The notes under the pieces: model-generated
What the model was told of the DNA's origin: nothing
The model's input: only the letters and a program-made list of their open reading frames with translations
The model's database searches: none
Translations under genes and position numbers: made by a program
In this document: positions 14,200 to 64,000 of the stretch, piece by piece
How the letters are laid out: each line of letters starts with the position of its first letter
Position numbering within the stretch: position 1 is the first letter of the stretch
IMG/VR virus record: IMGVR_UViG_3300032242_000738
Coordinates: 20,220 to 84,219 of that record
Reading direction: 5' to 3' (one strand)
DNA: 64,000 nt
DNA from: a virus

Positions 14200-15369
14200 A
14201 TGAGAGCCAATGAATTCATAACAGAAGTCAGAGATCGGATGTATCAATACATCCGAAGCATTGTTCCTACATGGCCAGAATATGTTGTGCAAGACTTGTT
14301 GTATAAAGGTCGCGGTAAAAATAAAAATTATAATGTCAATAGTGATGTCAAAGGCGAAATCCTTGAAATGATTGCGGACGCAGGACTAAGTCCCAACACT
14401 AACCCTTGGCAACTTGTGCCCAACATGAAGTTTACCATGGATATGTTTACTCCAAAGACCAAACAGAATTTAATAGCAAGGGCTGGCGGAAAAAGTGATT
14501 TAGGTATGGGCATACCAAAAGATGCTGAAAGACATGCTACACAAGCCGCACTTGTTCAACAAGTAGGTGTGAGTAAAGAACCAGTGATCTTAATAAAAAC
14601 ACCACACGGATATGCTCTACCAGAAGGTTGGCACAGAACTATACAACACTTTGCCAAGTATCCTGACGGATATACGGGTCCTGCTTATGTAGCAGTGGCA
14701 CATGGTCAGAACAGTTTGGAGGAAGGCTTGGAAGATTATGAAGGTATAAAAATCAAGTTCAGCAAAGATTCTAATGGAGTAGCAATCAAAGCATTATCAA
14801 ATGACAGCAACAAAGTATTAGGAAGTGTTGAACTATTTTTCAACGAAAAGGGACAGTTAGAACCGCAAGACCTTTGGGTCAATGATCGTTATCAAGGACA
14901 AGGCATTGCTAAAGCAATGTATGACTTTTTAAAAAATAAAGGCTACACTATTATTAGAAGTTGGGATCAAACTGACGCAGGTGCAGGATTTTGGAACAAG
15001 CACAAAGGCACAGGGGTCAATGTCTGGGAACAAGGTGTGGCGGAAGGCATCTCAAACGACATGTCTACAAAAGATATGATTGCATATCTAAGACAACACC
15101 ATGATACAAATCTACATCAAGATTATCTAAATCACATAAACACATTTAGCAAGTTTGTGTTACAAAATGTTCCTGTAAATTCAATCAAAACAAATTTGCC
15201 TAAACTAGATCCTGCAAAAGTAGAACAATACAAACAAATGGATTTTAGTAAGGCTCCTCCTATTGTAATGGGCGGGGGATATATTTTAGATGGTTACCAC
15301 AGAGCCAACGTAGCAAAAGCATTGGGTATTCCTACTATTAAAGCCTATGTTGGTATCACAACAAAATAA
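14200..15369 (+). CDS. modular polyprotein: ParB/Srx-like + GNAT-like + ParB/Srx-like
   Basis: Leader MRANEFITE; EPVILI...LPEGWHR; linker NSLEEG; LWVNDRYQGQGIAKAMY (GNAT motif A); linker EQGVAEG; PPIVM...ILDGYHRA. Confidence 0.75.
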   Translation: MRANEFITEVRDRMYQYIRSIVPTWPEYVVQDLLYKGRGKNKNYNVNSDVKGEILEMIADAGLSPNTNPWQLVPNMKFTMDMFTPKTKQNLIARAGGKSDLGMGIPKDAERHATQAALVQQVGVSKEPVILIKTPHGYALPEGWHRTIQHFAKYPDGYTGPAYVAVAHGQNSLEEGLEDYEGIKIKFSKDSNGVAIKALSNDSNKVLGSVELFFNEKGQLEPQDLWVNDRYQGQGIAKAMYDFLKNKGYTIIRSWDQTDAGAGFWNKHKGTGVNVWEQGVAEGISNDMSTKDMIAYLRQHHDTNLHQDYLNHINTFSKFVLQNVPVNSIKTNLPKLDPAKVEQYKQMDFSKAPPIVMGGGYILDGYHRANVAKALGIPTIKAYVGITTK

Positions 15370-15378
15370 CCTAATCTC

Positions 15379-15421
15379 TTTACTTTATAGCTCTCCTGTA
15401 GTATAATATGTATTACAGGAG
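15379..15421 (+). promoter_or_regulatory. sigma70-like promoter within an SD-sequestering hairpin
   Basis: TTTACT-N17-TATAAT (15379-15407); CTCCTGTA (15393-15400) pairs with TACAGGAG (15414-15421). Confidence 0.7.
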
Positions 15422-15428
15422 TTACCAT

Positions 15429-16061
15429 ATGATTATTGGAATTACGGGACTAATTTCGAGCGGCAAAGACACTATTGCCGACTATCTTTGCACATTTCAC
15501 GGGTTCAAGCGTGTTAGTTTTGCGGCATCATTGAAAGATGCAGTAGCAGCCGTCTTTGGTTGGGATAGAGAATACTTAGAAGGTTCAACTAAAAAAAGCA
15601 GAGAATGGCGAGAACAAAAAGACCAATGGTGGAGTGATCGTTTAGGAATGAATATTACACCAAGATGGGTATTACAATACTGGGGAACAGAGGTATGTCG
15701 TAATAACTTTCACAATGATATTTGGGTAGCTAGCGTAGAGAATAAATTACGTCAAACCACTGATAATATTGTAATTACCGATTGTCGTTTTGCTAATGAA
15801 GTAAGTGCAATTAAGAATGCCGGCGGAATTACTATGCGTGTTAGTCGTGGTCTACGTCCAGAATGGTATAGTGCGGCAGTTGATTACAATAATGAACCTG
15901 CAGGTAGCGAATCACATCAAAAAGCTATGGTAGAATTAGCTAATTATGCAGTACATGCCAGTGAATATAGCAGTATTGGATTATTGTATGACCATTATAT
16001 TGATAATAATGGATCAATTGATGATTTGCACAAGCAAGTCAACTCAGTAGTCAACTTGTAA
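15429..16061 (+). CDS. deoxynucleoside monophosphate kinase (T4 gp1-like)
   Basis: MIIGITGLISSGKDT P-loop, TPRWVLQYWGTE, VITDCRF.NE, HASE; start reassigned to the ATG at 15429 after SD AGGAG. Confidence 0.9.
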   Translation: MIIGITGLISSGKDTIADYLCTFHGFKRVSFAASLKDAVAAVFGWDREYLEGSTKKSREWREQKDQWWSDRLGMNITPRWVLQYWGTEVCRNNFHNDIWVASVENKLRQTTDNIVITDCRFANEVSAIKNAGGITMRVSRGLRPEWYSAAVDYNNEPAGSESHQKAMVELANYAVHASEYSSIGLLYDHYIDNNGSIDDLHKQVNSVVNL

Positions 16062-16388
16062 GTCACCACGTTTCCAAGTAACTTCTTTCTTTTTAACTAC
16101 TTCTACACAGTTAAGACATATACTACGTAAGTTAACCAAGTCAGCATTTTCTAAATTACCGTCAATATGAAAGACGGTAATCTGACTTGGGAATAGACTT
16201 TTGAAACCGCATAAATCACATGCGGTTTTTTTCTTATATCCTTTAGTTTTCCATTTAGGATTTCTAGGTTTAAGTTTGTTTTTCTTTCTACCACACTCAT
16301 CACACAAGCTTCTATAGTGTGTTATACCTAGCCGTTTATAGTTAACAGCACAGTGGTTCTTTCCGCAAGTATTACATATAGGTCGCAT
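16044..16388 (-). CDS. Zn-ribbon / HNH-like small protein
   Basis: CxxC pairs and VFHIDGNLEN...NLRSICLNC; start reassigned to MRPIC at 16388, just after TAAATA. Confidence 0.7.
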   Translation of the reverse strand: MRPICNTCGKNHCAVNYKRLGITHYRSLCDECGRKKNKLKPRNPKWKTKGYKKKTACDLCGFKSLFPSQITVFHIDGNLENADLVNLRSICLNCVEVVKKKEVTWKRGDLQVDY

Positions 16389-16508
16389 GATGTATTTACT
16401 CACGGAACCTTCAAAGGCACGGTAAGACTGTCTTTTTAAAGGTATTTGATAAATATTAATATGCAATCAGGTAGTAAACCTCAAAATTTTACATAAAGGA
16501 AATATAAA

Positions 16509-19500
16509 ATGGCATTAACATCTCCAGGCGTAGAAGTACAAATCATTGACCAGAGTCAATACCTTCCAGCCCCAACGAATTCAGTCCCACTTATTTTAGT
16601 AGCAACAGCACAAAACAAAGCTGATGCATCTGGAACAGGTGTAGCAGCCGCGACAACAGCAGCTAACGCAAACAAATTATTCCAAGTAACAAGTCAGAGA
16701 GACTTAGTAAACTTGTATGGTACACCGTTCTTCTATACAACGACAAATGGTACACCAATACAGGGTTATGAGTTAAATGAGTATGGTTTATTAGCAGCCT
16801 ACAGTACATTAGGTGTAACAAATCGTTGTTATGTCTTACGTGCTGATATTGATCTAGCAAGTTTAGTAGGTCAAACAGGTCGTCCAACAGGTAGCCCAGA
16901 CAGTGGTACATATTGGTTAGATACTACAACTAGTACATGGGGTATATATGAATTTAATCAAACTACTGGTCAATTCATGTTACAGAATCCTATTGTTATT
17001 ACAATGGATAGTGATTTAACAGCAGGTGTACCAAACAATAGTATTGGTAATATCGGCGATTATGCTGTAAATGCTATGCAAGCCATGAGTGACCCTGAAG
17101 CGTTAAATGATAGAACATATTTTTACAAAACATCATCAAATGCATGGACAATATTAGGTTCAAGTGCTTGGAAATTAGATGTTCCTACAATACAAGCAAC
17201 ACAATCTAATCCAACATTAGGTGCAGGTGTATTCACTATCAATTTATCTGGTACATCAGGCGTTACTGCAACTATTAATGTTTCTAGTGGCAACACTGTT
17301 GATAATGTTGCATCTACTATTAATGGTTTTGGATGGGCTGGTATGTATGCTGAAGTTCGTAGTGGTAAATTATGTATTTTCAGTAATCAATTTGGCAATG
17401 GTTCTTGTTTAATTATTGCTAATGTATCTGGTACTGCACTTGCAGATATAGGTATTGCAACTGGTCGTTATAATCAGCCTGCATTTGTATATGGTACAAG
17501 TGCCCAAATGCCATTATGGAACACAAGTCAAACAACTCCTCGTCCAACAGGTAGTGTATGGTTAAAAGTTGGATCAGCTGGTACTGGTTTAAGTCCAGCA
17601 CTTTCTGTATACAACGGTGCTACAAATTCTTGGTCAGCTAAGAATGTATCTTTAGCAACAAGTGATTGGGTAGCAAGCGCAAACTTAGATGCTACTGGTG
17701 GTAAAGCAATACTTCCGGGAACTGTATATTGCCAATATGCATTTGATGCAACAGGTGTTAATCCAAGTCAGACTGCTCCTATTTACATGTGGGAAAGAAT
17801 AGCGACAGGTGAAACAGTAGTTACAGGTAATGTAAGTAATCCAATGTTTAATCTTGGTCCATATTACATGGAAGTATCTGTAAGTGTTCCTGGAAGCACA
17901 ACTTTAGACGGTCCATATTATTTTGAATTAGACGATAATAGTGATGCAGTTGATTTTGTAACAGCATGGCAAGCAGCTGGTATATCTTATACAACTGCAA
18001 TGGTAACAACAGACGGTGCTATTCAATTAACACATACTGAAGGTGGTGAAATCATATTAAATGACTTTGTTAATAGCTCATTTACTAATACAAATGCTTC
18101 TAATGGATTAATTGCCGCAGCTGGATTTGTTATAGATACAACATCTGGAGTAAAATATGGTCCTTCTAATACAACATATTTGAATGTTACTGGCACAGGT
18201 GGTACTGGATCAGGAGCTACTTATGACATTCTAGTAACTGCTGGAGTATATATAGTACATAATGCTGGCATAACAAGTCCAGGTGCAGGTGGTTATACAT
18301 TGGGTGATCAAATTACTATACCAGGTACACAACTTGGTGGAACTAGCCCAGCAAATAATTTAGTTGTTGAAATAACATCAGTATCAGTAGGTGGTAACCC
18401 AACATCAATTACTTATGTATCAGGTAATCCTACACATACATATCTAACACAGTTAAGTAACTGGAGAGAGTTCACTTATATTGCTAATGAAGGTGCGCCA
18501 GCAATGGCTCCTGCGAATGATACTAACTGGTTCTATAGTGTAGTAGATCAAGTTGATATTATGGTAAACTTCAGTGGTAACTGGTATGGTTATGGTAATC
18601 GTAACTATGATAGTAACGGATTCCCATTACCAACATTCAGTACATCAGCTACTAATCCAACTGGTCCATTAATTAGTGCAACTGCACCAACAACACAAAG
18701 TGATGGTACTAATTTAGTATACGGTGATATTTGGATTGACACTAGTGATTTAGAAAATTATCCAATTATTAATCGTTGGCAAAGTGTTAATGGTATAAAT
18801 CAATGGGTATTACTTGATAATACAAATCAAACAAGTAGTACAGGTGTAGTATTTGCTGACGCACGTTGGTCAAGTAATCAAAACACTATTAGCCCAGTTG
18901 ATGATCCTATACCAACAATCACTGGCTTATTAGCTAGTAACAACCTTGATTTAGATGCACCTGATCCAACATTATATCCTTCTGGTATGTTGTTATTCAA
19001 CACACGCCGTAGTGGTTATAACGTAAAACAGTTCAGAACTAACTACTTCAATGGTACTAGTTTCCCTGATACACAATTACCATATTACAAAGATACTTGG
19101 GTAACAGTAAGTGGTAATCAAGCAACAGGTGCACCTTACATGGGTCGTAAAGCACAACGTGCAATGGTTGTACAATCATTGAATATGGCAATTGCTACTA
19201 ACACAGCAATACGTGATGAAGATAACTTCTTCAACTTGTTAGCAACACCAAACTATCCAGAACTACAACCTGGTATGATTACATTAAATAATGACCGTGG
19301 TCAAACTGGTTATATTTTAGGTGACACACCGTTGCGTTTACCTGATAGTGCTACTGCAATTCAAGCATGGGCTAACAATGAAGCTGGCGCAGCAAGTACA
19401 GGTGAAGAAGGTTTAGTAACACGTGATACATATATGGGTCTATTCTATCCAAGTGGATTAGCAACTGACTTACAAGGTAATCAAGTTGCAGTACCAGCAT

Positions 19501-20084
19501 CATATATGATGTTGCGTACATTCTTACGTAATGATACGATTAGTTATCCTTGGTTAGCGGCAGCTGGTACTCGTCGTGGTACAATTGACAATGCATTAAG
19601 TATTGGTTACGTTGATAATATGACTGGTGAGTTTATGCCGATCAAGACACGTTTAGGTATACGTGATGTATTGTATATCAATTTCATTAATCCTTTAGTA
19701 TTCTTTACTGGTGTAGGACTATTGAATTATGGTAACAAGACTAGCTTTAATAGTCAAAGTGCGTTAGATAGAACTAACGTTGCACGATTGATTGCTTATA
19801 TACGTAGACAATTAACATTAGCAGCAAGACCGTTTGTATTTGAACCTAACGATGCATTGACACGTAATCAAATCGCAGGTGTTGTACAGTCATTGATGGT
19901 TGATTTAGTTGCTAAACGCGGTCTATACGATTATCTTGTAGTATGTGACGAAAGTAACAATACGCCAGCAAGAATTGATAGAAGTGAACTATGGATAGAT
20001 GTTGCAGTTGAACCTGTTAAGGCAGCTGAATTTATCTATATCCCAGTTCGTATAATGAACACGGGCGCTATTGGTGCTCAATAA
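16509..20084 (+). CDS. contractile tail sheath protein (T4 gp18-like), enlarged
   Basis: N-terminal LTSPGVEV; C-terminal PWLAAAGTRRG, INPL, YGNKT, ALDRTNVARL, FEPND, CDESNNTP, PVKAAEFIYI; late promoter at 16448. Confidence 0.95.
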   Translation: MALTSPGVEVQIIDQSQYLPAPTNSVPLILVATAQNKADASGTGVAAATTAANANKLFQVTSQRDLVNLYGTPFFYTTTNGTPIQGYELNEYGLLAAYSTLGVTNRCYVLRADIDLASLVGQTGRPTGSPDSGTYWLDTTTSTWGIYEFNQTTGQFMLQNPIVITMDSDLTAGVPNNSIGNIGDYAVNAMQAMSDPEALNDRTYFYKTSSNAWTILGSSAWKLDVPTIQATQSNPTLGAGVFTINLSGTSGVTATINVSSGNTVDNVASTINGFGWAGMYAEVRSGKLCIFSNQFGNGSCLIIANVSGTALADIGIATGRYNQPAFVYGTSAQMPLWNTSQTTPRPTGSVWLKVGSAGTGLSPALSVYNGATNSWSAKNVSLATSDWVASANLDATGGKAILPGTVYCQYAFDATGVNPSQTAPIYMWERIATGETVVTGNVSNPMFNLGPYYMEVSVSVPGSTTLDGPYYFELDDNSDAVDFVTAWQAAGISYTTAMVTTDGAIQLTHTEGGEIILNDFVNSSFTNTNASNGLIAAAGFVIDTTSGVKYGPSNTTYLNVTGTGGTGSGATYDILVTAGVYIVHNAGITSPGAGGYTLGDQITIPGTQLGGTSPANNLVVEITSVSVGGNPTSITYVSGNPTHTYLTQLSNWREFTYIANEGAPAMAPANDTNWFYSVVDQVDIMVNFSGNWYGYGNRNYDSNGFPLPTFSTSATNPTGPLISATAPTTQSDGTNLVYGDIWIDTSDLENYPIINRWQSVNGINQWVLLDNTNQTSSTGVVFADARWSSNQNTISPVDDPIPTITGLLASNNLDLDAPDPTLYPSGMLLFNTRRSGYNVKQFRTNYFNGTSFPDTQLPYYKDTWVTVSGNQATGAPYMGRKAQRAMVVQSLNMAIATNTAIRDEDNFFNLLATPNYPELQPGMITLNNDRGQTGYILGDTPLRLPDSATAIQAWANNEAGAASTGEEGLVTRDTYMGLFYPSGLATDLQGNQVAVPASYMMLRTFLRNDTISYPWLAAAGTRRGTIDNALSIGYVDNMTGEFMPIKTRLGIRDVLYINFINPLVFFTGVGLLNYGNKTSFNSQSALDRTNVARLIAYIRRQLTLAARPFVFEPNDALTRNQIAGVVQSLMVDLVAKRGLYDYLVVCDESNNTPARIDRSELWIDVAVEPVKAAEFIYIPVRIMNTGAIGAQ

Positions 20085-20089
20085 AATAT

Positions 20090-20109
20090 GATACCCCGAA
20101 AGGGGTATC
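20090..20109 (+). terminator. GAAA-tetraloop hairpin between sheath and tube genes (terminator or processing/stability stem)
   Basis: GATACCCC-GAAA-GGGGTATC, weak U-tract. Confidence 0.6.
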
Positions 20110-20147
20110 TATTTCTAATAGATAAATATTAATAACAGGAGAAAAAA

Positions 20148-20804: not shown

Positions 20805-21992
20805 ATGTCTGGATTTTTTCAGAACTTATTAACAGACACTGCCGCGGGATTCTTCGGCAGTGAATACCTTCGTGATTATACTCATGCTAGTAAAACATTT
20901 AGACCTAATGCATATCAATATGCACCTAAGTTTAAGTTTCTGTTTCATGTATATTTTGAAATCAATCAAAGTGCATATGCTGTGGGATTACCACAAGGTG
21001 CAAATTTTGGTCTAGCAGTTAAATCTGTAAAATTACCAAGCTATAGTTTTGATACACATACGATGAATCAATATAATCGTAAACGTATCGTGCAAACAAA
21101 AATAAAATATGATCCAATTGATATTAATTTCCATGATGACAATGGAAATTTAATACGTAACATGTGGTATAACTACTATACATATTACTATAAAGATGCA
21201 AGTATTCCAGTAGCATCAGTATCAGGCCGTCAAGCACAACAAACAGGTAATGGTAGTACAAATAGTCCCAATAATGCAAACTATAACCTACGCAACATAT
21301 ATTCACAATCTATTACCGGTGACACAGATTGGGGCTATATAGGTGAAACATCAAGTACGCCTGCAACTAACATACAAGCAGGTAATGGACAAACCAAAAT
21401 TCCATTCTTTAAAAATGTTACAATATTTGGTTTCAATCAACATAAGTATGTAGCTTATACATTAATTAATCCTATCATTAATAGATTTGCACATGATACA
21501 TACAATTATGCCGAAGGTAATGGTACTATGGAAAATACAATGACGTTGGATTATGAAACTGTTAAGTATTTCCAAGGTGCTATTAGTGGCAAAGAACCTA
21601 GTAACATTGTTGCTGGTTTTGGTCTAGATCAAAATTATGATAGAATAGTTAGTCCTATTAGTAGACCGGGTAGTCAGGCTAGTATATTAGGTCAAGGCGG
21701 ACTAGTTGACGGTGTTAATGGTGTCATTGATGATTTATCAGGATCTAATAAAAATATATTAGGTGCTATACAAAAAGCTGGTGCAACATATAATACTCTT
21801 AAAAATATCAATTTAAAACAAGCAATTAAGAGTGAAGTAACTGCAGGTATTACTAATGCTATTATGAATCCATTAAATAATACTGGAAGAAATGTATTGT
21901 TTAATTTACCTATATTTGGTAGTACCCCGAATCAAGCAGCACAAGCAAATGGTAGAAACGTACTTCCTCCGGATATAAATATAGGGGGATAA
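20805..21992 (+). CDS. tail-tube-related baseplate/tube initiator protein (gp48/gp54-like)
   Basis: Tube-fold motifs VKSVKLPSY...NQYNRK...YDPIDINFHDD...LDYE. Confidence 0.6.
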   Translation: MSGFFQNLLTDTAAGFFGSEYLRDYTHASKTFRPNAYQYAPKFKFLFHVYFEINQSAYAVGLPQGANFGLAVKSVKLPSYSFDTHTMNQYNRKRIVQTKIKYDPIDINFHDDNGNLIRNMWYNYYTYYYKDASIPVASVSGRQAQQTGNGSTNSPNNANYNLRNIYSQSITGDTDWGYIGETSSTPATNIQAGNGQTKIPFFKNVTIFGFNQHKYVAYTLINPIINRFAHDTYNYAEGNGTMENTMTLDYETVKYFQGAISGKEPSNIVAGFGLDQNYDRIVSPISRPGSQASILGQGGLVDGVNGVIDDLSGSNKNILGAIQKAGATYNTLKNINLKQAIKSEVTAGITNAIMNPLNNTGRNVLFNLPIFGSTPNQAAQANGRNVLPPDINIGG

Positions 21993-24357: not shown

Positions 24358-24987
24358 ATGCGTAGTCTAAAACAATACATAACCGAAAGTCTTAAAAGTT
24401 ACAATTATACTATAAAGATTGCTGGTGATGTGGATAAAAACTTCTTAGATATGTTTAAATACAATCTAAACAAGTTTGACCCGATCAGAATCAGCGAGCC
24501 AACTAAAACACCTATACAGAAAGATCCGTATGGATTTCCTAATTTAAATAATCAATCTGTAACTATTATTAAAGCTGATTTTAGATATCCAGCTACTGAG
24601 CCAATGATACAACAAATTGCTCAATTATTGGGCTATAATGTTAACATGGTTCGTGTTATTAGTAGCCATTATGATGATAGCATTAATAGTGAGGCTGAAG
24701 GCTATGCTAATGAAATGAAAGATAGTCCAATACTTACACATGAAGAAATGGGTGAGCAACCTGGTGCTAAAGAAGCTGCCAAACAATATGGTGATAGTTA
24801 TTTAACTAGTATTAAAGATCAAATGAAGGGTTCAACTATTGATATTCCTTATGCAGGTCAAAAGACTCCTGATGCGTTTGATCCATTCAAGCCATATTTG
24901 GATGATAAAAAAATGGGCGATAAGAGTCCAATGAGTACAATTAAACGCCCACCAAAGCCAGCAACTGGCGCTAGCGTATCAAAATAA
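24358..24987 (+). CDS. head-associated protein with MRSLKQYITE leader
   Basis: Late promoter at 24329; leader resembles T4 internal-protein capsid-targeting sequences. Confidence 0.55.
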   Translation: MRSLKQYITESLKSYNYTIKIAGDVDKNFLDMFKYNLNKFDPIRISEPTKTPIQKDPYGFPNLNNQSVTIIKADFRYPATEPMIQQIAQLLGYNVNMVRVISSHYDDSINSEAEGYANEMKDSPILTHEEMGEQPGAKEAAKQYGDSYLTSIKDQMKGSTIDIPYAGQKTPDAFDPFKPYLDDKKMGDKSPMSTIKRPPKPATGASVSK

Positions 24988-24999
24988 AAGGAACATAAA

Positions 25000-27177
25000 A
25001 TGGATTTCAAAAGTTTATTATCACAACTAGACCAGTTGAACGAAGCAAAAGAAAAAACTAAAACTGGATTAAAGCATACTGCTGAGCCAGGTGGTTACGG
25101 CCGTAAAGACGATGAAGATGACGAGGGTCATAAAGTTAAAGCCACTAGTGTCAAAAAAGGCAAGGGTCGTCCTAAGAAAGATGCAGATGATTCAGGTGAA
25201 ACTAAAAAGTATGACTTTAGTGCATTTGGTGTTAAGTCTGGTAAAGATGTTAAGTTACCTAAACATGATAAGAAGAAAACTACAGTAGTTAAAGGTAAAT
25301 CACAAAGCCATGCCTCTAATAAAGTAGATGACGGTACTGATCCAGGAGAAGAACCTAAAACAAAGAAAAAAGGTCTAAAAGAATATTTTGATTCATTGGA
25401 TAAAGCATTGAACGAAGCTGAACAGATTGTAATCAAACCAGCAAGTCAAATGCCTAAACAACCTGGACAAACATCAATGGGTCAGAAGCCAGCAGTTCCT
25501 GGTCAGCAACAACAAGTTGCAGGTCAGCCACAAAAAGATACACAAGTTATTGCTCAAGGTAATAAGACATTAGGTACAGTTGACAATCCACAATTAGCAC
25601 AACAGATTAAACAAAGTATCGGTAAAGGCGAAATGACTTTGATGCCTGATCAAATGCACGAAGAAATGGACGAAGATAGTAACTACAGTGCAAAAGACGC
25701 ACGTGCAGGTAAAGATATTGGTAAGCCAGGCAAATCATTTAGTAAAATTGCAAAATCTGCAGGTGAAAGATATGGTAGTAAAGCAGCCGGTCAACGTGTT
25801 GCAGGTGCAGTATTAGCTAAACTACGTAAAACAAATGAAGCCGATCAACCACCAAACGATAGTTTGTTAAGCCCAATGAGTGAAGTCAAGAAGCCAGATG
25901 CTAACAAGAATGGTATCCCTGACTATGCTGAAGATGGTAAGGGTAAAAACGATTTGAAGAAAAAGAAAGTTAAAGAAGGTATGGAACATAAATTAAAAGC
26001 AGCTCGCCATACGGGTAAGGCACATGCTTTAGCTAAAGAAAGTTATAACTGCCGTTATGATGATATGGAAGAAGCAAGACATTACCATGAAGGCTATAAA
26101 GAAGGTCTAGATGAATGCTATGGTCAAATGCCAATTCAAGGTTATGTTGGTGAAACTGGTAATGAATTAGGAAATATGGCTAGTTATGGTGCACATACTC
26201 CTACAATGGAAGATGATTTGGATGAAGTAAGCCGCGGTGAGTACATGAAGCAAAAAGCAAAAAGCACACCGGGCGATACATTTAAAGCATTTGGACAAAC
26301 TTTCCAAGACAAAGAAGTATTAGAAGATAATCCATTCTTTGAATCATTTGAAAAGCAATTAAATTCACTATTAGAAAGTGAAGAAGTTACTGAAGGTATG
26401 ACTGTTTCTATCAGTAAAGGTCAGCAAGGTAGTCCTGATTCAGTAAGTGTTTCAGCACAAGATGGTGAAGCCGATCAGTTGTTATCATTAATCAAATCTG
26501 CTGGTTTAGGATTATTTGGTGGTGATGAACAAGCAGTATCAACTGGTTCACAACCAATGAGTGTTGCAGTTGACGGTGAAACTACACCTGCTGATATAGA
26601 AGTTGTTGACGACCATGATGATATGTTATCATTGATCCGTAAGATGACTGGTCAAGGCCCTGCAGTAGCAGCCGGTGATTATGAAGAAGAAGGTGGTGAA
26701 CCAGCACATGGTCAACATGGACATGAAGAACATGAAGAACATGAAGAAAATTGCAATGAATGCGGTATGGCTTATGAGTCATGTGGTTGTGATGACAACG
26801 CAGTAGAAGAAAATGAGTCAATGGATCAACGTGAATATGAAGTAGCTGAAGCCGCCGTAGAGACTGATGCTGAAGCTGATGAAAATGCAGAGGCTGCAGA
26901 AGACCAAGCACTAGCTACAGTAGATGCCGCACAAGATGAAAGTCAAGTTGATGAAGAAGAAAAAGTAGAAGAATCATATGCTAATGGTGATGATGATACA
27001 TTTGAATCTGATATTGATTTTATGACTAATGTTATTAGTGGTGGTTTAAACAAGCGTAAATCTACTGGTCAGTCAACAATTCCAGTTGTATCTACACAAG
27101 TAAATCGTTTAGGTAGTCCAATGAAAGAATCTACAGATTTATTAACAGATTGGCGTAAACTAAGCGGTATTAAGTAA
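25000..27177 (+). CDS. large acidic/basic low-complexity prohead core-like protein
   Basis: Leader MDFKSLLSQLDQLNE; many hydrophobic-x-E sites; K-rich and E/D-rich blocks; C-terminal WRKLSGIK. Confidence 0.55.
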   Translation: MDFKSLLSQLDQLNEAKEKTKTGLKHTAEPGGYGRKDDEDDEGHKVKATSVKKGKGRPKKDADDSGETKKYDFSAFGVKSGKDVKLPKHDKKKTTVVKGKSQSHASNKVDDGTDPGEEPKTKKKGLKEYFDSLDKALNEAEQIVIKPASQMPKQPGQTSMGQKPAVPGQQQQVAGQPQKDTQVIAQGNKTLGTVDNPQLAQQIKQSIGKGEMTLMPDQMHEEMDEDSNYSAKDARAGKDIGKPGKSFSKIAKSAGERYGSKAAGQRVAGAVLAKLRKTNEADQPPNDSLLSPMSEVKKPDANKNGIPDYAEDGKGKNDLKKKKVKEGMEHKLKAARHTGKAHALAKESYNCRYDDMEEARHYHEGYKEGLDECYGQMPIQGYVGETGNELGNMASYGAHTPTMEDDLDEVSRGEYMKQKAKSTPGDTFKAFGQTFQDKEVLEDNPFFESFEKQLNSLLESEEVTEGMTVSISKGQQGSPDSVSVSAQDGEADQLLSLIKSAGLGLFGGDEQAVSTGSQPMSVAVDGETTPADIEVVDDHDDMLSLIRKMTGQGPAVAAGDYEEEGGEPAHGQHGHEEHEEHEENCNECGMAYESCGCDDNAVEENESMDQREYEVAEAAVETDAEADENAEAAEDQALATVDAAQDESQVDEEEKVEESYANGDDDTFESDIDFMTNVISGGLNKRKSTGQSTIPVVSTQVNRLGSPMKESTDLLTDWRKLSGIK

Positions 27178-48952: not shown

Positions 48953-48976
48953 ATATTATTTTAAAAGGAAATACTA

Positions 48977-52540: not shown

Positions 52541-53530
52541 ATGAGATATATTGTTGTCATGCCGGGAGGCTTTCACCCATTTCATGCTGGACATGCCGCA
52601 TTGTATCAGAGTGCAGTAAAAGCATTTCCCGGTGCCGACGTTTATGTGGCTGCAACTAATGACACAAAGACACGTCCGTTTCCGTTTGCTATTAAAGAGA
52701 AACTAGCAAAACTTGCAGGTGTAGCTGATAAACACTTTGTACAAGTTAAAAGTCCATTTCAACCTAGAGAAATAACCGATCACTATAACCCTGCAGAAGA
52801 TGTATTAATCTTTGTACGTAGTGAAAAGGATCGTAATGAAAGCCCTAAACCAGGTGGTACAAAGAAAGATGGTAGTCCTGCTTATTTTCAACCATGGACA
52901 GGTAAAAATGTACAGCCATTTGGTAAACAAGCATATATTGCTTATCTGCCGACAGTAGAGTTTGGCCCTGGCATTACTAGTGCAACAGAGATACGTAATG
53001 CATGGCCTACATTGAATGATAAACGTAAGACAGCGATGGTTATGAGTTTATATCCTGTAACACAAAAGAATCCTAAACTAGCCGCTAATGTTGTTAAGAT
53101 GTTAGATATGGGTATGGGTAGTGAACTGTCGGAGGGCGAAATTATCCCATTCAAACAACCATCAAAAACATTAACATGGCAACAAGTACCTAGAGATATT
53201 TTGTTACTAGCCAATGATTGGTTTTGGGCAAGTGAAGATAACTCAGGTCTTGCCGCTACTATAGATCCTGAGGGTTTTGGTAATGGTACTGCTAATGATG
53301 TAAAATATTTAACAGCAAAACTTCAACAAAAAGGCTGGACAATTGATTTTAATGATGAATATGATGGTCCGGGAGAATACAATCTAAGACTTACTAACAA
53401 ACGTGGACAAACGGTATTATTGTCTATTGAGGATGCTCAGACATTTACCGGTTGGGCAAAGGGTACTAGTCAATATGATTTAGAAGAAACTACTGTTACC
53501 GAAAACTTAGATTACCTAGAAGAAAAATAA
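52541..53530 (+). CDS. HxGH cytidylyltransferase-like nucleotidyltransferase with appended C-terminal module
   Basis: MPGGFHPFHAGH and TSATEIRN; linker SELSEG then an unrelated module of about 125 aa. Confidence 0.8.
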   Translation: MRYIVVMPGGFHPFHAGHAALYQSAVKAFPGADVYVAATNDTKTRPFPFAIKEKLAKLAGVADKHFVQVKSPFQPREITDHYNPAEDVLIFVRSEKDRNESPKPGGTKKDGSPAYFQPWTGKNVQPFGKQAYIAYLPTVEFGPGITSATEIRNAWPTLNDKRKTAMVMSLYPVTQKNPKLAANVVKMLDMGMGSELSEGEIIPFKQPSKTLTWQQVPRDILLLANDWFWASEDNSGLAATIDPEGFGNGTANDVKYLTAKLQQKGWTIDFNDEYDGPGEYNLRLTNKRGQTVLLSIEDAQTFTGWAKGTSQYDLEETTVTENLDYLEEK

Positions 53531-56285: not shown

Positions 56286-57113
56286 ATGATGAACTTGCTA
56301 GGACTTAAACATTACCTAATTAATACTATCTACGGGTCAGATGGAAAAATATCCACAGGGAAATTTAAAAGCCTACCGATAGAAGTTAAAAATAGTATTT
56401 TACATTTTACCAATAAATGCCAATCAGATAAGTTATCCGAACGGATTTACTGGATACTAAACGATTTACAAGATTATCCTGCTAAATGTAAATACTCTGC
56501 CTGTGATAACCCACTGAGATTTAAAGGTGGTTATCAAGGAGTATTCTGTTCATATAGTTGTAATTCAAAATACCAATTGTCAGTGTTGCCGAATCCTTTT
56601 AGTGGACTATTAGGAATACAGCGTAGGAAAAATGGGATGATGAAAAAATATGGTGTAGACCATAATATGAAGACTAAAGAAAGTCTTGTTAAACGACAAC
56701 AAACTTATATTGACAACTATGGTGTTGACCATCCATTGAAATCAAAAGAGATTATAGATAGCGTAAGAAAGAAAAATGAAGATGCTGGCAGATGGACTCC
56801 TGAAGAACAAATGGAAGAATTTTATCTGTATAGACGAAAGGTATGGCACTATACTAATCAGCAACCGATTGAAACTCTGCCTAACTATACCCTACGGGGA
56901 CACGCAAGTAATAAAACCGCCTACTCATTGGATCATAGATTTTCTTGCCACGAAGGGTTTATGAAAAACATCCCTCCGGAAATAATAGGGAACATATCAA
57001 ATCTTGAGTATATACCTAACGTACAGAATTCAAGCAAGAAGACTGCTTGCTCACTAACCAAAGAAGAATTGTATGAAAGATATAACAGCTCAAATACAAA
57101 AATAACAGAATAA
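56286..57113 (+). CDS. putative free-standing HNH homing endonuclease
   Basis: CxxxxC...CSYSC, repeated YGVDH, and YSLDHRFS...IGNISNLEYIP...NSSK HNH-like motif; sits between plcP and GT2. Confidence 0.7.
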   Translation: MMNLLGLKHYLINTIYGSDGKISTGKFKSLPIEVKNSILHFTNKCQSDKLSERIYWILNDLQDYPAKCKYSACDNPLRFKGGYQGVFCSYSCNSKYQLSVLPNPFSGLLGIQRRKNGMMKKYGVDHNMKTKESLVKRQQTYIDNYGVDHPLKSKEIIDSVRKKNEDAGRWTPEEQMEEFYLYRRKVWHYTNQQPIETLPNYTLRGHASNKTAYSLDHRFSCHEGFMKNIPPEIIGNISNLEYIPNVQNSSKKTACSLTKEELYERYNSSNTKITE

Positions 57114-57140: not shown

Positions 57141-57212
57141 ATGACAAATAAATCGCTTAGAGATTACATCAATTTAATAGAATCAAACGAGCAAGGTTTG
57201 GCGGGCAAATGA
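57141..57212 (+). CDS. 23-aa 'empty' leader+linker ORF (MTNKSLRDYINLIESNEQGLAGK), possibly a remnant
   Basis: Below ORF-track cutoff; TAAATA at 57111-57116; leader like other head-cargo proteins; ends in linker-like GAGCAAGGTTTGGCGGGC. Confidence 0.5.
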   Translation: MTNKSLRDYINLIESNEQGLAGK

Positions 57213-57224
57213 CCAACGACAATC

Positions 57225-57935: not shown

Positions 57936-57985
57936 TAACGGTTCTTTTTATTCAGTACTAATGACTTGTTACTGATAAATACTCT

Positions 57986-60169
57986 ATGGACCTAAAAGAA
58001 CTACACTCCTTCAAATTGTCAGATGCTGTGACATTTCACGATCACCTAAATCCTAAACTATTTCGTGGTCAACATCTACAACCTGAAGTAGAACTACAAC
58101 TAAAAACAATTGCAAAAGATTTCCTACAAGAGATGGGAATACATGATTTAGATGTACGTGATATTACTATATCCGGAAGTAATGCAGCCTATAGCTATAC
58201 AGACCATAGCGACTTAGATTTACATATTCTAGTTAATATGAGTGATTTACCTAACGATGAAATATACCGTGAATTGTTTACAGCTAAAAAAGACTTATAT
58301 AATGATTCACATGATATTACTATTCACGGAATTCCAGTAGAATTATATATACAAGATGCATCAGAACCTGTAGTTAGTTTAGGTGAGTATAGTATTAAAG
58401 ATAACAAATGGTTACGTTTACCTACAAAACGTAGAGCAAACTTTGACCAAACAGCTACTAAAGCAAAATATAATAAGTTATTAGATGTAATTGAGAAAAC
58501 ACTACAAACTGATAATATAGCCAAAGTATCAAAAGTATTGAAGAAAATCAAACAATATCGTCAAGCTGGATTAGATAAAGGTGGAGAGTTTGGCCCTGAA
58601 AACTTAGCATATAAAATGTTGCGTAGCCAAGGTTATATTACAAAATTATATGATTTGCGTGATAAGTTACATAGCAAAATATTAAGTTTGAATGGTATGT
58701 ATTCTAATGTACTTGATGAAATTATAGATATGCCTCCAATTACTAGGCGTATGGATATACAATCAATGTATAATGATGTACAGACTAAACTTAAATATCA
58801 TCAGGCAACTAAGTTAACATCTATTAATTTTCCTATGAAAAATCAAGTATTTCGTGAAGATAATTATGGATATAAGTTTTTCTTATTTAACAAAGAGAAT
58901 AAACCAGTGTTTTATCTTGGTATAAGTAAGTTTCATGATGGTTACAAAACAGGTGCGGTTGCGGGTGAAAGTGAAGTTAGTGGACAGGGTTTAGGATGGA
59001 AGTTATATAAAGCAGTAAGTGATTATTTAAATGTACCTTTATATAGTGATAGCACACAAACATCTGATAGTAAGAAGGGTATTTGGCAAAAACTAATACA
59101 TAATTATCCTAAACAAGTGGTAGGATATGACCAAATATCACGTAAGGATGTACCCATTAAAAACATATATCAACCATTACCACAAGATCAGTTACGACAT
59201 GTAGATGATGATACCAGAAGAAATACATTGTTATTAAAGTTTCTACCAGCTGTAGTACAAGAAGATTTAAATGAATCATTTGGTATAGGTCCACTACAAG
59301 TAGGTGATATGTGGTTTGATATTAGAAAACATGCATTAGAGAGATTAGAAGAACGTAGGGTACCTATATCTACTGCAAAAGAATTGTTACGTAGAATTTC
59401 ATTAATGAAGAATAAAATTCAACAAATGGATGCGGGACAGGCTTTTTGGGTTCATGATCCTAGTTTAGGTATTTCAATGGGTATGAGGTTATTGGGCAGT
59501 GGTAAAGTTCAATGGGCTACTACTATTATAGGTGAACCTAGAAACCGTGATGCTAATAATCCAATAATTGATATCAATGAAGCTTTTCATAAGCCATATT
59601 CATTTAAATGGGAAAAGAGTGAGTACGGTGATTATGATGCATTAGCAAAACTACCAGACGACACAAACTTAAGCATTATGTTTAATCTAGCCGATATGTC
59701 AGATAATAACTGGGGGGTTGAATTTTATAGAAACAATAGTCAATCGGTCACCGGGGAAGGTGATGCTCAACGAGTATTTGCTACAGTACTAAATGCTATT
59801 AGTCAATTTATTAAAAAGAAAAAACCTAATACTCTATTTTTTACCACTGTAAAAGAAGAAGATCCTACTGGCAGCAGAACAAAACTATACGATAGATTAG
59901 CTCAACGATATGCTACTGGGTTAGGTTACGATTTAAAAAAAGTAGAATATCCTGAACAAATAGGATATAAGTTAACACGCAACGAACAAAAAGTAACAGA
60001 AGCCTCTGGTTATATTCCTAGCGAAAAAGAAAAGAATGACCCACGTTACAAGACAGCATTAACTGTGGATGTACATCCAGATAGTATCAAAAAGAACGCT
60101 AAATCCTTCTATTGGAAGACTAATAGAGCTGGAATTCCACCAACAGCTAATCCTTCAGGCAAAATCTAA
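57986..60169 (+). CDS. modular polyprotein: Pol-beta-type nucleotidyltransferase + GNAT-like + further modules
   Basis: ISGSNAAYSY...SDLDLHI...PVELY (GS..DxD..E); modules begin after VLDE, DLNE, DINE and KVTE; GQGLGWKLY...LYSDSTQT is GNAT-like. Confidence 0.75.
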   Translation: MDLKELHSFKLSDAVTFHDHLNPKLFRGQHLQPEVELQLKTIAKDFLQEMGIHDLDVRDITISGSNAAYSYTDHSDLDLHILVNMSDLPNDEIYRELFTAKKDLYNDSHDITIHGIPVELYIQDASEPVVSLGEYSIKDNKWLRLPTKRRANFDQTATKAKYNKLLDVIEKTLQTDNIAKVSKVLKKIKQYRQAGLDKGGEFGPENLAYKMLRSQGYITKLYDLRDKLHSKILSLNGMYSNVLDEIIDMPPITRRMDIQSMYNDVQTKLKYHQATKLTSINFPMKNQVFREDNYGYKFFLFNKENKPVFYLGISKFHDGYKTGAVAGESEVSGQGLGWKLYKAVSDYLNVPLYSDSTQTSDSKKGIWQKLIHNYPKQVVGYDQISRKDVPIKNIYQPLPQDQLRHVDDDTRRNTLLLKFLPAVVQEDLNESFGIGPLQVGDMWFDIRKHALERLEERRVPISTAKELLRRISLMKNKIQQMDAGQAFWVHDPSLGISMGMRLLGSGKVQWATTIIGEPRNRDANNPIIDINEAFHKPYSFKWEKSEYGDYDALAKLPDDTNLSIMFNLADMSDNNWGVEFYRNNSQSVTGEGDAQRVFATVLNAISQFIKKKKPNTLFFTTVKEEDPTGSRTKLYDRLAQRYATGLGYDLKKVEYPEQIGYKLTRNEQKVTEASGYIPSEKEKNDPRYKTALTVDVHPDSIKKNAKSFYWKTNRAGIPPTANPSGKI

Positions 60170-60224
60170 TAAGTTTCCATATTACGGTATTTTGATAAAT
60201 ACACTATTAGTATGGGAATCCTTT

Positions 60225-61145: not shown

Positions 61146-61146
61146 T

Positions 61147-64000
61147 ATGAGTAATATTCTTAAAGGTATATTAAACGAATCTAATCCTTTTTATGGACAT
61201 AATGATCCAGCAAAAGAATACGGAGCTGATGCACCCACATATCGTAAACGTGGCCCTTATTCACATACAGATGATGATGAAGATGTTAATCCATTTGCTG
61301 AATATGAACGTCAGCAAAAAGACTTTGCTATTGGTCGTGCAAAGAAAGCGGCAGCTGAAAAACAACAACGTGATAGTGACCATGATAGATTAGCTAGTGG
61401 TACAAATGAAAGTATGGATGATCCATGGGGACCACAAGGTAACTTTGCAGGTGATACGCCAGTCAATTTAGGTGGTGTGTCTATGAAGATCATACAAGTA
61501 GGTGATACTGTTAAGTATTTTGGATACCCTGCTAAAGTAGTTGATATGAGTAAGGATCGTAAGTATTCACGCATTACAATTACTAAAGGGATGGGTAGTG
61601 TTACACAAGATGTATTAACAAGTGATTTACAACAATTAGGTCGTGGTAAAGAAGTACGAGAAGATAATAATACTAGAATGAAAATGGATCAGTATTATGA
61701 ATTAGCAGATGCTATTCAAGAAAAACTCAGAAACGCAATACAGTTTGGTGATAAAGAACTTATAAAAAAATTAAACAAAGAACGTGAAGAATTAGATGCA
61801 CGTGTTAAACAACATGGATTGATGCCCGAATCAGAACAACTAGATGAAATCTCTAATGAGAAACTAGCACAATATAAAACAGCTGCCGCTGCCGATGCAG
61901 GCAAAGCTGATAGTGAAGGTGATTACAAACGTGGTGATAAACGTTTCAGTGGTATTGTTCGTGCAACTAAAAAACAATTTGCTAATGATGCAAAGAAATC
62001 TGCTATTAGTCAAGGTATAAATGAATTTTCTGTAAATCCTACTGGTCCTAAAGGTCCTAAAGATTACGGTCAACCAAATAGTTCACGTTATATAGGTGGT
62101 AACAAGTTTGTAGTAGGTACTACTAACAACTATGTGTTAACTGCAACAATAGACAAATGGGGATTAGAATGGGATGAGGATGATGAAGTATGGTTCTTAG
62201 ACAGTCCTGGTGCCGCACATATTGCTGATGCAAGTGAAGGTGAAATAGAATTGCCCCCACCACGTGAACAGAGATATCAAATACATGATTTAGTAACTGA
62301 TTATCTCAATAGTAAAAATTTAGCAGATTTACAAAAAGTAGCCAAATACTATGGTCATAGTGATGACGGTGAAATGGCAACAAATGAAGAATATAGACCT
62401 ACAACTGGTCAAGCTAATAATATACGTAAACAAACTGCACAGAAAATGAATCCAGGCAGTAGTAAATTTGTTTGGAAAAGACCTAATCAAATAAGTGGTA
62501 GTCATACTGAACAAGAATTACTATCAATGGGTTTTCGTAAATCTACAAAGAGTAACGTATGGGGCGGTACACAAGATATGTGGAATCGTTTATCAGAATC
62601 ATTATATGAATTTGCACCAAATAATGATGATGACGATTCAGATGACTATCAGATGTTAAGAAAACTAGCGTCACAATGGTATAATGGATCTGATGACCAA
62701 ATGTTAAAGATTGAACATGTGTTATCTACCATGGGTTGGGAAATAGGTGAAGATGAATCTGGTGAACCAGATGCAGGTGTATTTGTAATACGCACCGGTG
62801 ATATCAATGGTGATACATATATTGCTTTCCCCGAAAGTGAATTAAATTTAAATGAAAACTTAGGTGATCAATTAAAATCTACATCATTAGATGCATTGAT
62901 TCAAGCTAAACTAGCTATAGAGAAACAACGTGAAGCTGACATAGAAGCTTGGAGACAGGATTTTGAAAAGAATACTGTACAAAAAGCACAACAAGGTTTA
63001 CGTAGACAATTTGAACCAACACCAGTATCACAGCCTGGCGAGAAGCATTCAGTATTAAAGAATAGATTAATGCAATTGAATAGTGCTATAGAGAAACAAG
63101 AAATAGTAGATAAGTTAGTTGATAGATTAGAACGTAAGGGTTTAATGACTCCTGCAATGAAGAATGATACTGATACAAGAATGCATGTTAGATATGGTGC
63201 AAAAGATAACTATCAATCATTAAATCAGAAATTGGATAATGCTATTAATATGTTAAAACATAGATTGGCAATGCGTAAGATTTCTGGATTGAAGGAAAGC
63301 AATGATGAAGAACAATTAGATGAATTAAGTTGCTGGTCTGGTTATCATAGAGTTGCTGGTACCAAAGCAGGCTTTCCAGGTAGTTGTGAAAAAAACAAAA
63401 CTAATGAAGATCACACCGAGAAATGCCCGCACTGTGGTGGCGAATTGGTCAGTGAAGAATTGATGAATGAAAAGAAAGATGCTTGCTACTATAAAGTTAA
63501 GAGCCGTTATAAAGTATGGCCAAGTGCTTATGCTAGTGGTGCGTTAGTTAAGTGCCGCAAGAGCCATGGTAGTTGGGGCAATGGTGGAAAGAAGAATGAA
63601 AGTTCTATACTAGAAGGCATTGAAAGAGCAGATGAGAACTTACACCAATGGTTCAAAGAAAAGTGGGTACGTTTTGGTCCTGATGGAAAGATTCGTGGTG
63701 ACTGTGCTAGAGGTGATGATAGTGAAGGTAAGCCAAAGTGTTTACCACAAAGTAAAGCACAAAATTTAGGTAAGAAGGGTCGTGCAAGTGCTGCTGCACG
63801 TAAGCGTAGAGAAGATCCTAATCCAGAACGTAGTGGTAAAGCCATCAATGTTAACACCAAAAAGAAGTCTAACGAAGGTGTGGCGGAAGGCTCTAACGCC
63901 GGAGATATTGAATTATCACATAGTATGTCTCCTGATATGTTGTATGTACACGCTACATCAGATGGAACAGATGTAGGTGGCGCAAGATTTAAAAAAATAG
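61147..64000 (+). CDS. large modular polyprotein (at least 951 aa), 3'-truncated, missing from the ORF track
   Basis: Frame open from ATG 61147 (MSNILKGILNE) to the window end; modules include KKDACYYKVKSRYKVWPSAYASGALVKCRK and LHQWFKEKWV...GKPKCLP; linker NEGVAEG at 63871-63891. Confidence 0.85.
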   Translation, partial: MSNILKGILNESNPFYGHNDPAKEYGADAPTYRKRGPYSHTDDDEDVNPFAEYERQQKDFAIGRAKKAAAEKQQRDSDHDRLASGTNESMDDPWGPQGNFAGDTPVNLGGVSMKIIQVGDTVKYFGYPAKVVDMSKDRKYSRITITKGMGSVTQDVLTSDLQQLGRGKEVREDNNTRMKMDQYYELADAIQEKLRNAIQFGDKELIKKLNKEREELDARVKQHGLMPESEQLDEISNEKLAQYKTAAAADAGKADSEGDYKRGDKRFSGIVRATKKQFANDAKKSAISQGINEFSVNPTGPKGPKDYGQPNSSRYIGGNKFVVGTTNNYVLTATIDKWGLEWDEDDEVWFLDSPGAAHIADASEGEIELPPPREQRYQIHDLVTDYLNSKNLADLQKVAKYYGHSDDGEMATNEEYRPTTGQANNIRKQTAQKMNPGSSKFVWKRPNQISGSHTEQELLSMGFRKSTKSNVWGGTQDMWNRLSESLYEFAPNNDDDDSDDYQMLRKLASQWYNGSDDQMLKIEHVLSTMGWEIGEDESGEPDAGVFVIRTGDINGDTYIAFPESELNLNENLGDQLKSTSLDALIQAKLAIEKQREADIEAWRQDFEKNTVQKAQQGLRRQFEPTPVSQPGEKHSVLKNRLMQLNSAIEKQEIVDKLVDRLERKGLMTPAMKNDTDTRMHVRYGAKDNYQSLNQKLDNAINMLKHRLAMRKISGLKESNDEEQLDELSCWSGYHRVAGTKAGFPGSCEKNKTNEDHTEKCPHCGGELVSEELMNEKKDACYYKVKSRYKVWPSAYASGALVKCRKSHGSWGNGGKKNESSILEGIERADENLHQWFKEKWVRFGPDGKIRGDCARGDDSEGKPKCLPQSKAQNLGKKGRASAAARKRREDPNPERSGKAINVNTKKKSNEGVAEGSNAGDIELSHSMSPDMLYVHATSDGTDVGGARFKKI

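Follow-up and report, generated by a model that had tools for sequence, protein, structure and literature searches.

The DNA analysed here (hereafter the window) is a stretch of 64,000 nucleotides (nt) that forms the final 64 kb of one 84,219-bp IMG/VR contig (IMGVR_UViG_3300032242_000738, positions 20,220 to 84,219). This study concerns a family of modular genes within it, typified by the gene for protein P0001 at 14200–15369, in which unrelated protein modules are joined by a short linker of the form Q-G-V-A-E-G. The contig is a portion of an uncultured freshwater giant phage related to T4, and its completeness of 24% according to CheckV implies a genome of about 350 kb. Genes in the window include those for tail sheath, sheath-stabiliser-like, adaptor-like and virion proteins, and a 397-amino-acid (aa) window protein aligned by tblastn, at 24–30%, with hypothetical proteins of phiM12, Cr30, DLP6, ACP17 and PA5oct, which are distant T4-type phages. 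Sequencing runs with the P0001 region came from three studies and were labelled aquatic, freshwater or plain 'metagenome'. Neither megablast of 14200–20084 nor a tblastn search with P0001 found a match in the phage collection, and PHROGs and Pfam returned nothing for the regions 4732–6126, 20805–21992, 23315–24286, 25000–27177 and 38244–39641. Throughout, P denotes proteins and homologues, L viral loci, G viral records and X sequencing runs.

The P0001 gene lies between a head-tail adaptor-like gene on one side and a deoxynucleoside monophosphate (dNMP) kinase gene on the other (Table 1). Its GNAT domain, placed by Pfam at residues 188–267, sits between the two linkers of the protein, and the excised module scored 28.2 bits against PF13508 (cut-off 27) and 25.4 bits against PF00583 (cut-off 20.7). 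The N- and C-modules (14227–14709 and 15049–15366) had no match in PHROGs, Pfam or PDB sequence searches. In the Atlas model of P0001, residues 10–169 and 283/285–389 aligned to stand-alone viral protein clusters with template-modelling (TM) scores of 0.78–0.82, and the same ranges aligned to ParB_N-carrying clusters with TM scores of 0.53–0.64 (0.55–0.64 for the C-terminal range); some P0001 relatives carry PF02195. The predicted structure suggests that the modules are independently folding units. At E ≤ 0.001 there were 716 P0001 homologues, 213–681 aa in length, many of which had only the first 46% of the protein in common, at 60–80% identity, and carried different Pfam domains. Among the best 120 of the 716, most had (Q)GVAEG at every junction and the N-terminus MRAxEF(I/L)xE. 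With its conserved flanking genes, its conserved first module and a hypervariable tail that starts at the linker, the P0001 locus is a clean test case.

Table 1. Cargo-type genes, modules and linkers in the window (positions are those of the 64,000-nt stretch).
Feature	Position	Strand	Remarks
P0001, three-module gene, 389 aa	14200..15369	+	Leader, ParB-like N-module, GNAT, ParB/Srx-like C-module
Leader MRANEFITE, ends I-x-E	14200..14226	+	Resembles T4 capsid-targeting sequence
Degenerate linker N-S-L-E-E-G, AACAGTTTGGAGGAAGGC	14710..14727	+	Joint of N-module and GNAT; relatives have QGVAEG here
GNAT acetyltransferase module, type A	14728..15030	+	Pfam PF13508/PF00583
Canonical linker Q-G-V-A-E-G, CAAGGTGTGGCGGAAGGC	15031..15048	+	Contains 17-mer copy 1
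ParB/Srx-like C-module (ISND...DGYHR)	15049..15366	+	Alignments of six loci start at 15029–15043; Atlas structural match
Two adjacent genes with leader-like N-termini MRSLKQYITE; MDFKSLLSQLDQLNE	24358..27177	+	Tentative membership
P0003, two-module gene	52541..53530	+	Cytidylyltransferase-like module (Pfam PF01467) and unknown module
Degenerate linker E-L-S-E-G in P0003	53123..53137	+	P0118 counterpart is Q-E-G-V-T-E-G
23-codon open reading frame MTNKSLRDYINLIESNEQGLAGK	57141..57212	+	Leader, decayed linker (57189–57206), stop
727-aa multi-module protein	57986..60169	+	Weak Pol-beta-type nucleotidyltransferase-like N-module, DUF6934
P0002, at least 951 aa, ends at contig edge	61147..63999	+	Leader MSNILKGILNE, several modules
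I-L-E-G junction in P0002	63607..63618	+	Joint of DUF5872 module and next module; alignment blocks split between 63560 and 63632
Canonical linker E-G-V-A-E-G, GAAGGTGTGGCGGAAGGC	63874..63891	+	Contains 17-mer copy 2
GNAT-type module, type B, first 36 residues, incomplete	63892..63999	+	82% identity to P0009 middle module

The 17-mer AAGGTGTGGCGGAAGGC occurs in exactly two copies in the window, both on the + strand, at 15032–15048 and 63875–63891, and the window held no further copy with three or fewer mismatches. The shuffle control predicted 0.05 matches, and none of 100 shuffles contained two or more copies. Both copies stand at codon offset 1 and encode (Q/E)-G-V-A-E-G between unrelated flanks, copy 1 in P0001 (QGVAEG) and copy 2 in the open-ended open reading frame (ORF) of P0002 (EGVAEG). 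Copy 1 closes one GNAT module, while copy 2 opens a different one whose counterpart in P0009 sits in the middle of that protein between two QGVAEG linkers; the pair is therefore not a duplicated segment. Since copy 2 ends 109 nt short of the contig end, the module that follows it is incomplete. An identical 17-mer in two otherwise unrelated genes had been claimed in the original prediction, with which the coordinates, the phase and the unrelated flanks agree. Its three variant strings (14710–14727, 53123–53137 and 57189–57206) were letter for letter correct, and all five sites lie, judged by homology, at module junctions as it had proposed. Besides the two canonical linkers, the window junctions read SLEEG, ELSEG and SSILEG, plus LSES/LNEN from the comparison with L064. 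Most window junctions have decayed to a looser hydrophobic-x-E, the canonical spelling being kept in just two.

The 17-mer pair is the longest exact distant direct repeat of the contig, tail-fibre and early-promoter repeats excepted. The 84-kb contig also has seven 16-mer and seventeen 15-mer exact repeats, mostly AT-rich and chance-like, so repeat length by itself is weak evidence, and the case rests on the composition, phase and context of the 17-mer. Its G+C content is 65% in a genome of 36%. In 34 window ORFs GTG makes up 5.8% of Val codons, GCG 4.6% of Ala codons and GGC 12.2% of Gly codons, and G+C at third codon positions is 19.6%; given this usage, the probability of GVAEG in the observed spelling is 1.8e-4 per copy. 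These figures bear out the claim that the motif uses GC-rich codons in a genome that prefers A/T-ending ones. A third GVAEG, at 4849–4863, is written in common codons (GGT GTA GCA GAA GGT). It lies in an unrelated, Thr/Ser/Gly/Ala-rich protein of 464 aa with no family match, and provides a control for the codon lock within the same genome.

Codon choice was then tallied over 35 distinct GVAEG copies from 58 loci and the present genome. A degenerate DNA pattern for QGVAEGFSND matched 0 viral contigs, and without the Gln codon matched two, both already in the set; the tally was therefore drawn from loci found via other peptides. GGT was used in 34 of the 35 copies, GTG in 29, GCG in 31, GAA in 34 and GGC in 26, against a background in the same ORFs of 50%, 17%, 8%, 80% and 22%, respectively, and the codon ahead was CAA in 24 of 35. 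Two control motifs from the same loci followed the background: the Gly of the invariant EGWHRT (GGT 17, GGC 7, GGA 7, GGG 1) and the Ala of the leader (GCA 12, GCC 10, GCT 4, GCG 0). The silent positions of the linker are fixed against codon usage, far beyond what that usage predicts, which answers the question of synonymous conservation raised in the original prediction. Information content is high across about 20 nt and near zero on either side, with sharp edges at about 18–20 nt. The consensus is Q-G-V-A-E-(G/N/S/A/D), mostly spelled CAA GGT GTG GCG GAA GGC, and the core CAAGGTGTGGCGGAA is retained in copies with D, A, N or S as the following residue.

The fixed codons might serve translation: a G-rich, Shine-Dalgarno-like stretch of rare codons would slow the ribosome while a module folds, in keeping with the established notion that rare codons cluster where domains meet. 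The rarity of GTG, GCG and GGC in the genome fits this proposal, as does the confinement of the motif almost wholly to one frame (164 of 167 copies among the matches listed). However, the rarest synonyms, GTC and GGG (10.5% of Val and 6% of Gly, respectively, in the host ORFs), were never used in the 35 copies, and the first Gly is written with its commonest codon, GGT, in 34 of them. Hence one particular spelling is kept, not rarity. The degenerate junctions SLEEG and ELSEG likewise retain parts of the same DNA word and not other rare codons. We regard a translational role as distinctly unlikely.

The exact 17-mer was found in at least 120 viral contigs, often two to three times within a few hundred nt. 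Among the matches listed, the copies in a single phase fell in 122 ORFs, which carry as many as 7 linkers each and have a median module of 78 aa. In bacterial genomes (596 Gb) the hits listed were single and came mainly from GC-rich taxa, which is the pattern expected by chance. Chance pairs of 15 and 16 bases do exist in the contig, and the two window copies might be one of these or have been left by a local duplication. No shuffle produced two copies, the motif is GC-rich in an AT-rich genome, the two window copies have a common phase and peptide between unrelated flanks, and the word recurs in one phase in at least 120 viral contigs. The codon tally, the spread across viral contigs and the shared phase refute the chance reading, to which we assign a negligible probability. 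The motif is not universal in the group: a whole-record scan of the relative G001 (200 kb, 44% GC) found nearly no canonical linkers and two GVEEG sites. G005, the 342,865-bp record behind L115, rated 99% complete, has a single 17-mer copy and no Pfam match to head genes (see below); its head genes may be highly divergent, or else the copy is due to chance.

Module exchange was examined by all-against-all blastn of the window and 177 viral loci, a linker site being defined by two or fewer mismatches to the 15-base core. Of 3890 internal ends of high-scoring segment pairs (HSPs), 13.0% fell within 6 nt of a linker site, compared with 1.0% at random positions. In P0001, HSPs from 48 loci that cover the first module end at 14690–14732, around the degenerate linker. 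A match of L062 (14722–15048, 88%) runs exactly to the final base of the 17-mer, and HSPs of six loci begin at 15029–15043 and continue to the end of P0001. In P0002, no HSP from any locus extends past 63891. Thirty distinct relatives were anchored on the end of the first module. Twenty-five have a [VLIM]-x-E junction within 18 residues, nine of these being exactly GVAEG, and 23 different continuations follow; four of the remaining five stop at that point and one lacks the motif. Five syntenic relatives keep both flanking genes at 70–80% nucleotide identity, and their insert from the linker to the next gene measures 260–925 nt versus about 640 nt in the window.

When 121 proteins were cut at the linker, 64 architectures were distinguished. 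Single-linkage clustering of the segments merged N- and C-modules via unsegmented proteins, and just the architecture count was used. The polyprotein of L011 consists of a nucleotidyltransferase, an unknown module, the P0001 C-module (86% identical), the P0001 N-module type and a tail, with QGVAEG at all four joints. Domain content is thus not fixed among orthologues, and homology blocks begin or end on the motif, as the 48, one and six loci at P0001 illustrate. The linker marks module boundaries, and relatives differ in modules and in their order on either side of it. The positions of these breakpoints are also what recombination at the motif would produce.

A dedicated site-specific system, in which a homing endonuclease or recombinase recognises the 18-mer and drives exchange, would make the family a true integron analogue. 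The sharp conservation edges do resemble a recognition site. T4-type phages carry many homing endonucleases, segB is annotated in the T4 record, and a putative HNH-region gene at 56286–57113 (so labelled from the original prediction and a DUF7487 match) adjoins the leader-only ORF at 57141–57212. Nevertheless, no integrase or recombinase was found next to the window's polyprotein genes or those of the loci read, among which no systematic test of nuclease co-occurrence was made, and no integrase was found among the subset of window ORFs scanned. No inverted-repeat or attC-like structure accompanies the linker, whose flanks carry no information. We consider such a system very improbable.

The leader of P0001 (MRANEFITE), a peptide like the capsid-targeting sequence of T4 that ends in L/I-x-E, is similar to the N-terminus of T4 IPII and IPIII in the T4 record (MKTYQEFIAE). 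The N-termini of 26 relatives match M[RK]AxEF[ILV]xE; many ORFs with the 17-mer start M[KR]xx[ED][LIF]xxE, and in some relatives the leader passes directly into GVAEG. According to the available portions of the articles cited here and below, the T4 prohead protease gp21 cleaves after L/I-x-E, IPIII needs no more than its first 10 residues to be targeted to the capsid, its processing depends on residues 8 and 10 (PMC9026906), and the homologous proteases of giant phages cleave after A-x-E or S/A/G-x-E (PMC5694885). Peptidase_S77, the gp21 family, was detected in one of five records of one search set (G001, E 6.5e-26). Among five large contigs with the 17-mer, three gave matches to Gp23 (E about 1e-98) as well as Peptidase_S77 (E 1e-25 to 1e-29), and the gene order in these contigs is protease-scaffold-capsid. 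Within the first 45 residues, the major capsid proteins of two related contigs contain four [LI]-x-E-(G/N/S) sites. In T4, ipI is located two genes away from gene 1 (dNMP kinase), beside neck and tail-completion genes (73.5–75.4 kb, L336); the adjacency of P0001 and the dNMP kinase gene (14200–16061) may be a neighbourhood conserved with T4 ipI, a weak hint. The linker resembles a head-protease cutting site, and from the T4-like leader, the L/I-x-E rule of gp21 and the gp21 and gp23 homologues in related contigs we infer that the polyproteins may be packaged and cut.

A mere flexible spacer within uncleaved 'polyvalent' proteins would also account for modules that vary freely among relatives. 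The proteins would act as whole polypeptides, packaged or not, and the uniform DNA would stem from frequent recent exchange or gene conversion. Phage polyvalent proteins with 2–15 domains are known, some of them packaged unprocessed (PMC5512222). A spacer needs no V-x-E, yet [VLIM]-x-E is kept in 25 of the 30 relatives while other linker positions drift, and the same P3-P1 pattern ends the N-terminal leaders and recurs in the N-termini of related capsid proteins. This explanation appears to us unlikely.

Our preferred reading, to which we give a probability of about 0.6, is that at least three window genes (14200–15369, 52541–53530 and 61147 to the end) are members of an extensive family of modular cargo polyproteins that consist of a leader, modules and one common linker, are cut in the prohead and are exchanged at the linker. 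Module types in the family include ParB-like, GNAT, nucleotidyltransferase and DUF5872. The leader would load the polyprotein into the prohead, where a gp21-type protease would cut after the Glu of V-A-E and after the I-x-E of the leader, releasing separate small proteins that would travel with the DNA. At the DNA level, the 18–20 nt of identical in-frame sequence may serve as a site for general homologous or short-homology recombination, so that exchange between co-infecting relatives, or between copies within one genome, would preserve the frame. Repeated exchange or gene conversion would then keep the spelling of the linker uniform.

Several observations weigh against this reading. A pile-up of breakpoints is partly expected wherever a conserved island separates differing modules, so the pile-up establishes boundaries and not a mechanism; furthermore, 18–20 nt is short for efficient homologous recombination. 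In a population check, metagenome contigs (Logan) of four runs were aligned to 12400–17100. Among 15 of 42 metagenome-contig joints listed, none lay at the linker, and a relative about 96% identical (a 2194-nt metagenome contig) has the same three modules. In runs X5 and X6 depth over the GNAT module was low, which, as no contig bridged the module, speaks neither for nor against exchange. Three of the five sites listed in the original prediction are degenerate forms, and a 97%-complete relative of 338 kb has about ten linkers in three genes, which makes this a small system per genome. On the protein side, [VLI]-x-E is short and common by chance. The Pfam search of the present contig, itself 24% complete, gave no gp21 (Peptidase_S77) or gp23 match, and the search was blank in four of the five records of the first set and in two of the five large 17-mer contigs. 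G005, despite its high completeness rating, has no Pfam Gp23 or Peptidase_S77 at E 0.001. The late box TATAAATA was not enriched (4 found, about 8 expected), and the late-promoter argument was dropped.

The same weighing applies to the original prediction. Its account of the linker as a domain junction, of fixed silent sites and of variable domain content stood, its proposed cleavage after Glu and release of separate proteins fit the data and may hold, and its wording 'integron-like' did not stand. No integrase, attC-like structure or dedicated recombinase was found, conservation ends at about 18–20 nt, the motif is nearly always in frame and linkers number about ten in the 338-kb relative; the term holds as an analogy only. 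Integrons need an integrase, attI and a folded attC, and move whole promoterless genes. Integron gene cassettes likewise form a changing payload array bounded by repeated sequence, but the integron parts were not found here, and exchange would be in frame and inside a gene.

Closer parallels exist among phage systems. The T4 internal proteins IPI, IPII and IPIII and Alt have, like the proteins described here, a short leader ending I/L-x-E (PMC9026906, PMC3012670). Both systems place diverse, fast-changing cargo behind a conserved leader, and relatives of the present phage encode a gp21-family protease. The T4 internal proteins, however, are single small proteins with one leader, whereas here repeated internal sites divide several unrelated modules of one polypeptide. 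Silent positions in the T4 leader are not reported to be fixed, and those of the leader here vary too. Packaging and cutting are proven for T4 and predicted here. Prohead core and ejection proteins of T4, phiKZ and SPN3US are cut repeatedly after Glu at a three-residue motif (L/I-x-E, A-x-E or S/A/G-x-E), several times per protein; in the portions available (PMC5694885, PMC9026906), these cuts remove propeptides or fragment scaffold, and they neither separate unrelated enzyme modules nor use one DNA word.

Polyvalent proteins also combine 2–15 unrelated effector-type domains in variable architectures, as the 64 architectures among 121 proteins do here, and for both, entry into the host together with the DNA has been proposed (PMC5512222). 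For polyvalent proteins, unlike here, self-processing by their own metallopeptidase domains has been proposed. The available text of that article contains 'linker' 0 times and describes no shared junction motif, capsid-targeting leader or DNA-level conservation. The zincin-like metallopeptidase signature of polyvalent proteins, like every other Pfam peptidase family, had no match in P0001, P0002, P0003 or the 727-aa protein. In the polyprotein of L009, a P0001 relative, the C-terminal module has an HExxH-like stretch (FHELTHH) and could be a zincin-type peptidase of the kind linked to polyvalent proteins.

Exchange at short conserved DNA motifs has precedents as well. In the PeSL cassettes of T4-type phages (PMC2839356) such motifs flank the exchanged segments, as here, but in the text available PeSLs are promoter-terminator units between genes by which entire genes are moved, whereas the present linker is intragenic. 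The glycine-rich motifs of the gp38 adhesins (PMC3157838) are, like the linker, exchange sites in frame within a gene. As the accessible part of that article presents them, they build the structural core of a single domain, where they set variants of the same loops apart, while the linker joins unrelated domains. The literature on polyvalent proteins, capsid targeting, prohead proteases and T4-type shuffling, supplementary files aside, yielded no account of the linker, and a full-text search for 'GVAEG' found no phage literature. None of these known systems describes one codon-locked in-frame linker common to unrelated modules and many genes.

The remaining cargo-type genes of the window vary in how closely they conform. 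P0003 and P0118 are 79% identical over residues 1–199, up to ELSEG/GVTEG, and unrelated beyond that point bar a C-terminal tail. After V/M-x-E both end (53486–53530 in P0003) in the 14-residue tail E-T-x-x-x-E-x-x-D-Y-x-E-E-K, which could serve as a conserved terminal tag or form a mini-module. In P0002 the leader and first modules are followed by a Zn-ribbon/DUF5872 module, the SSILEG junction, a basic WFKEKWVRFGPDGK module, the linker and the start of the GNAT; in P0120 the DUF5872 module and the next P0002 module are set apart and their order is reversed. The ORF at 57141–57212, which follows the DUF7487 gene and stands just upstream of a GT2 glycosyltransferase gene, is probably what remains of a cargo gene since lost: its leader is resembled by the N-terminus of P0031, MKTLRDYINLIESNKQGVAE, and an identical leader occurs on 2 ORFs in the viral loci. 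The 727-aa protein has no canonical linker, with LNE/S, INE/A and VTE/A as candidate junctions. Its N-module recurs in the polyproteins of L011, where it precedes QQGVAEG, and of L002. The gene (57986–60169) probably belongs to the family, and its membership is weaker than that of the others. The gene pair at 24358–27177, the second member of which encodes a 725-aa acidic low-complexity protein, had no family match in profile scans and possibly encodes head-core or internal proteins.

Other repeats and genes of the contig were recorded in passing. Near P0001, a Gly-rich structural ORF of 322 aa (12377–13345) contains a 113-nt exact direct repeat (at 12566 and 13157) and repeats of 21–26 nt. 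Metagenome-contig joints in three runs skip 317–325 nt there (12915/12918 to 13236/13240), which suggests that this ORF has repeat-number variants in natural populations. The 608-aa (2497–4323) and 2639-aa (27273–35192) genes have many exact repeats of 20–35 nt in common, and repeats inside the latter reach 65 nt; together they have the look of a fibre-type repeat family that could exchange segments. About 14.8–15.9 kb before the start of the window stand four copies of AATTTGACAATAAATGG..., two of which, 400 nt apart, are identical over 45 nt. They look like sigma-70-type early promoters, each before one small gene, in the manner of PeSL cassettes. The region 48146–51253 holds a gene with an N-terminus that, on our reading, resembles a DnaJ J-domain and, after it, the gene of a ClpB/Hsp104-type double AAA+ protein (Pfam AAA_2 2e-53, ClpB_D2-small); a phage-encoded chaperone pair would be unusual.

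The cargo polyprotein reading can be carried one step further, to a proposal that we advance tentatively and think doubtful as it stands: that the 18-nt word CAAGGTGTGGCGGAAGGC is dual-coded, serving at the protein level as the cutting site for capsid-delivered effectors and at the DNA level as a selected, frame-preserving crossover for cassette exchange at the level of domains. The GC-rich spelling would then be the footprint of constant conversion at a hotspot. If this is true, one 18-base word both preserves the frame at exchange and directs the head protease, and giant T4-type phages would have exon shuffling without introns, re-assorting anti-host modules across the lineage. It would be a general route by which sets of small enzymes are built, re-assorted and delivered into the host, and it would explain the fast diversification of internal-protein and polyvalent-protein repertoires. 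The linker would furthermore supply a sequence tag for candidate injected anti-defence proteins in metagenomes, and the polyproteins would offer a natural design for loading T4-type capsids with multiple cargoes.

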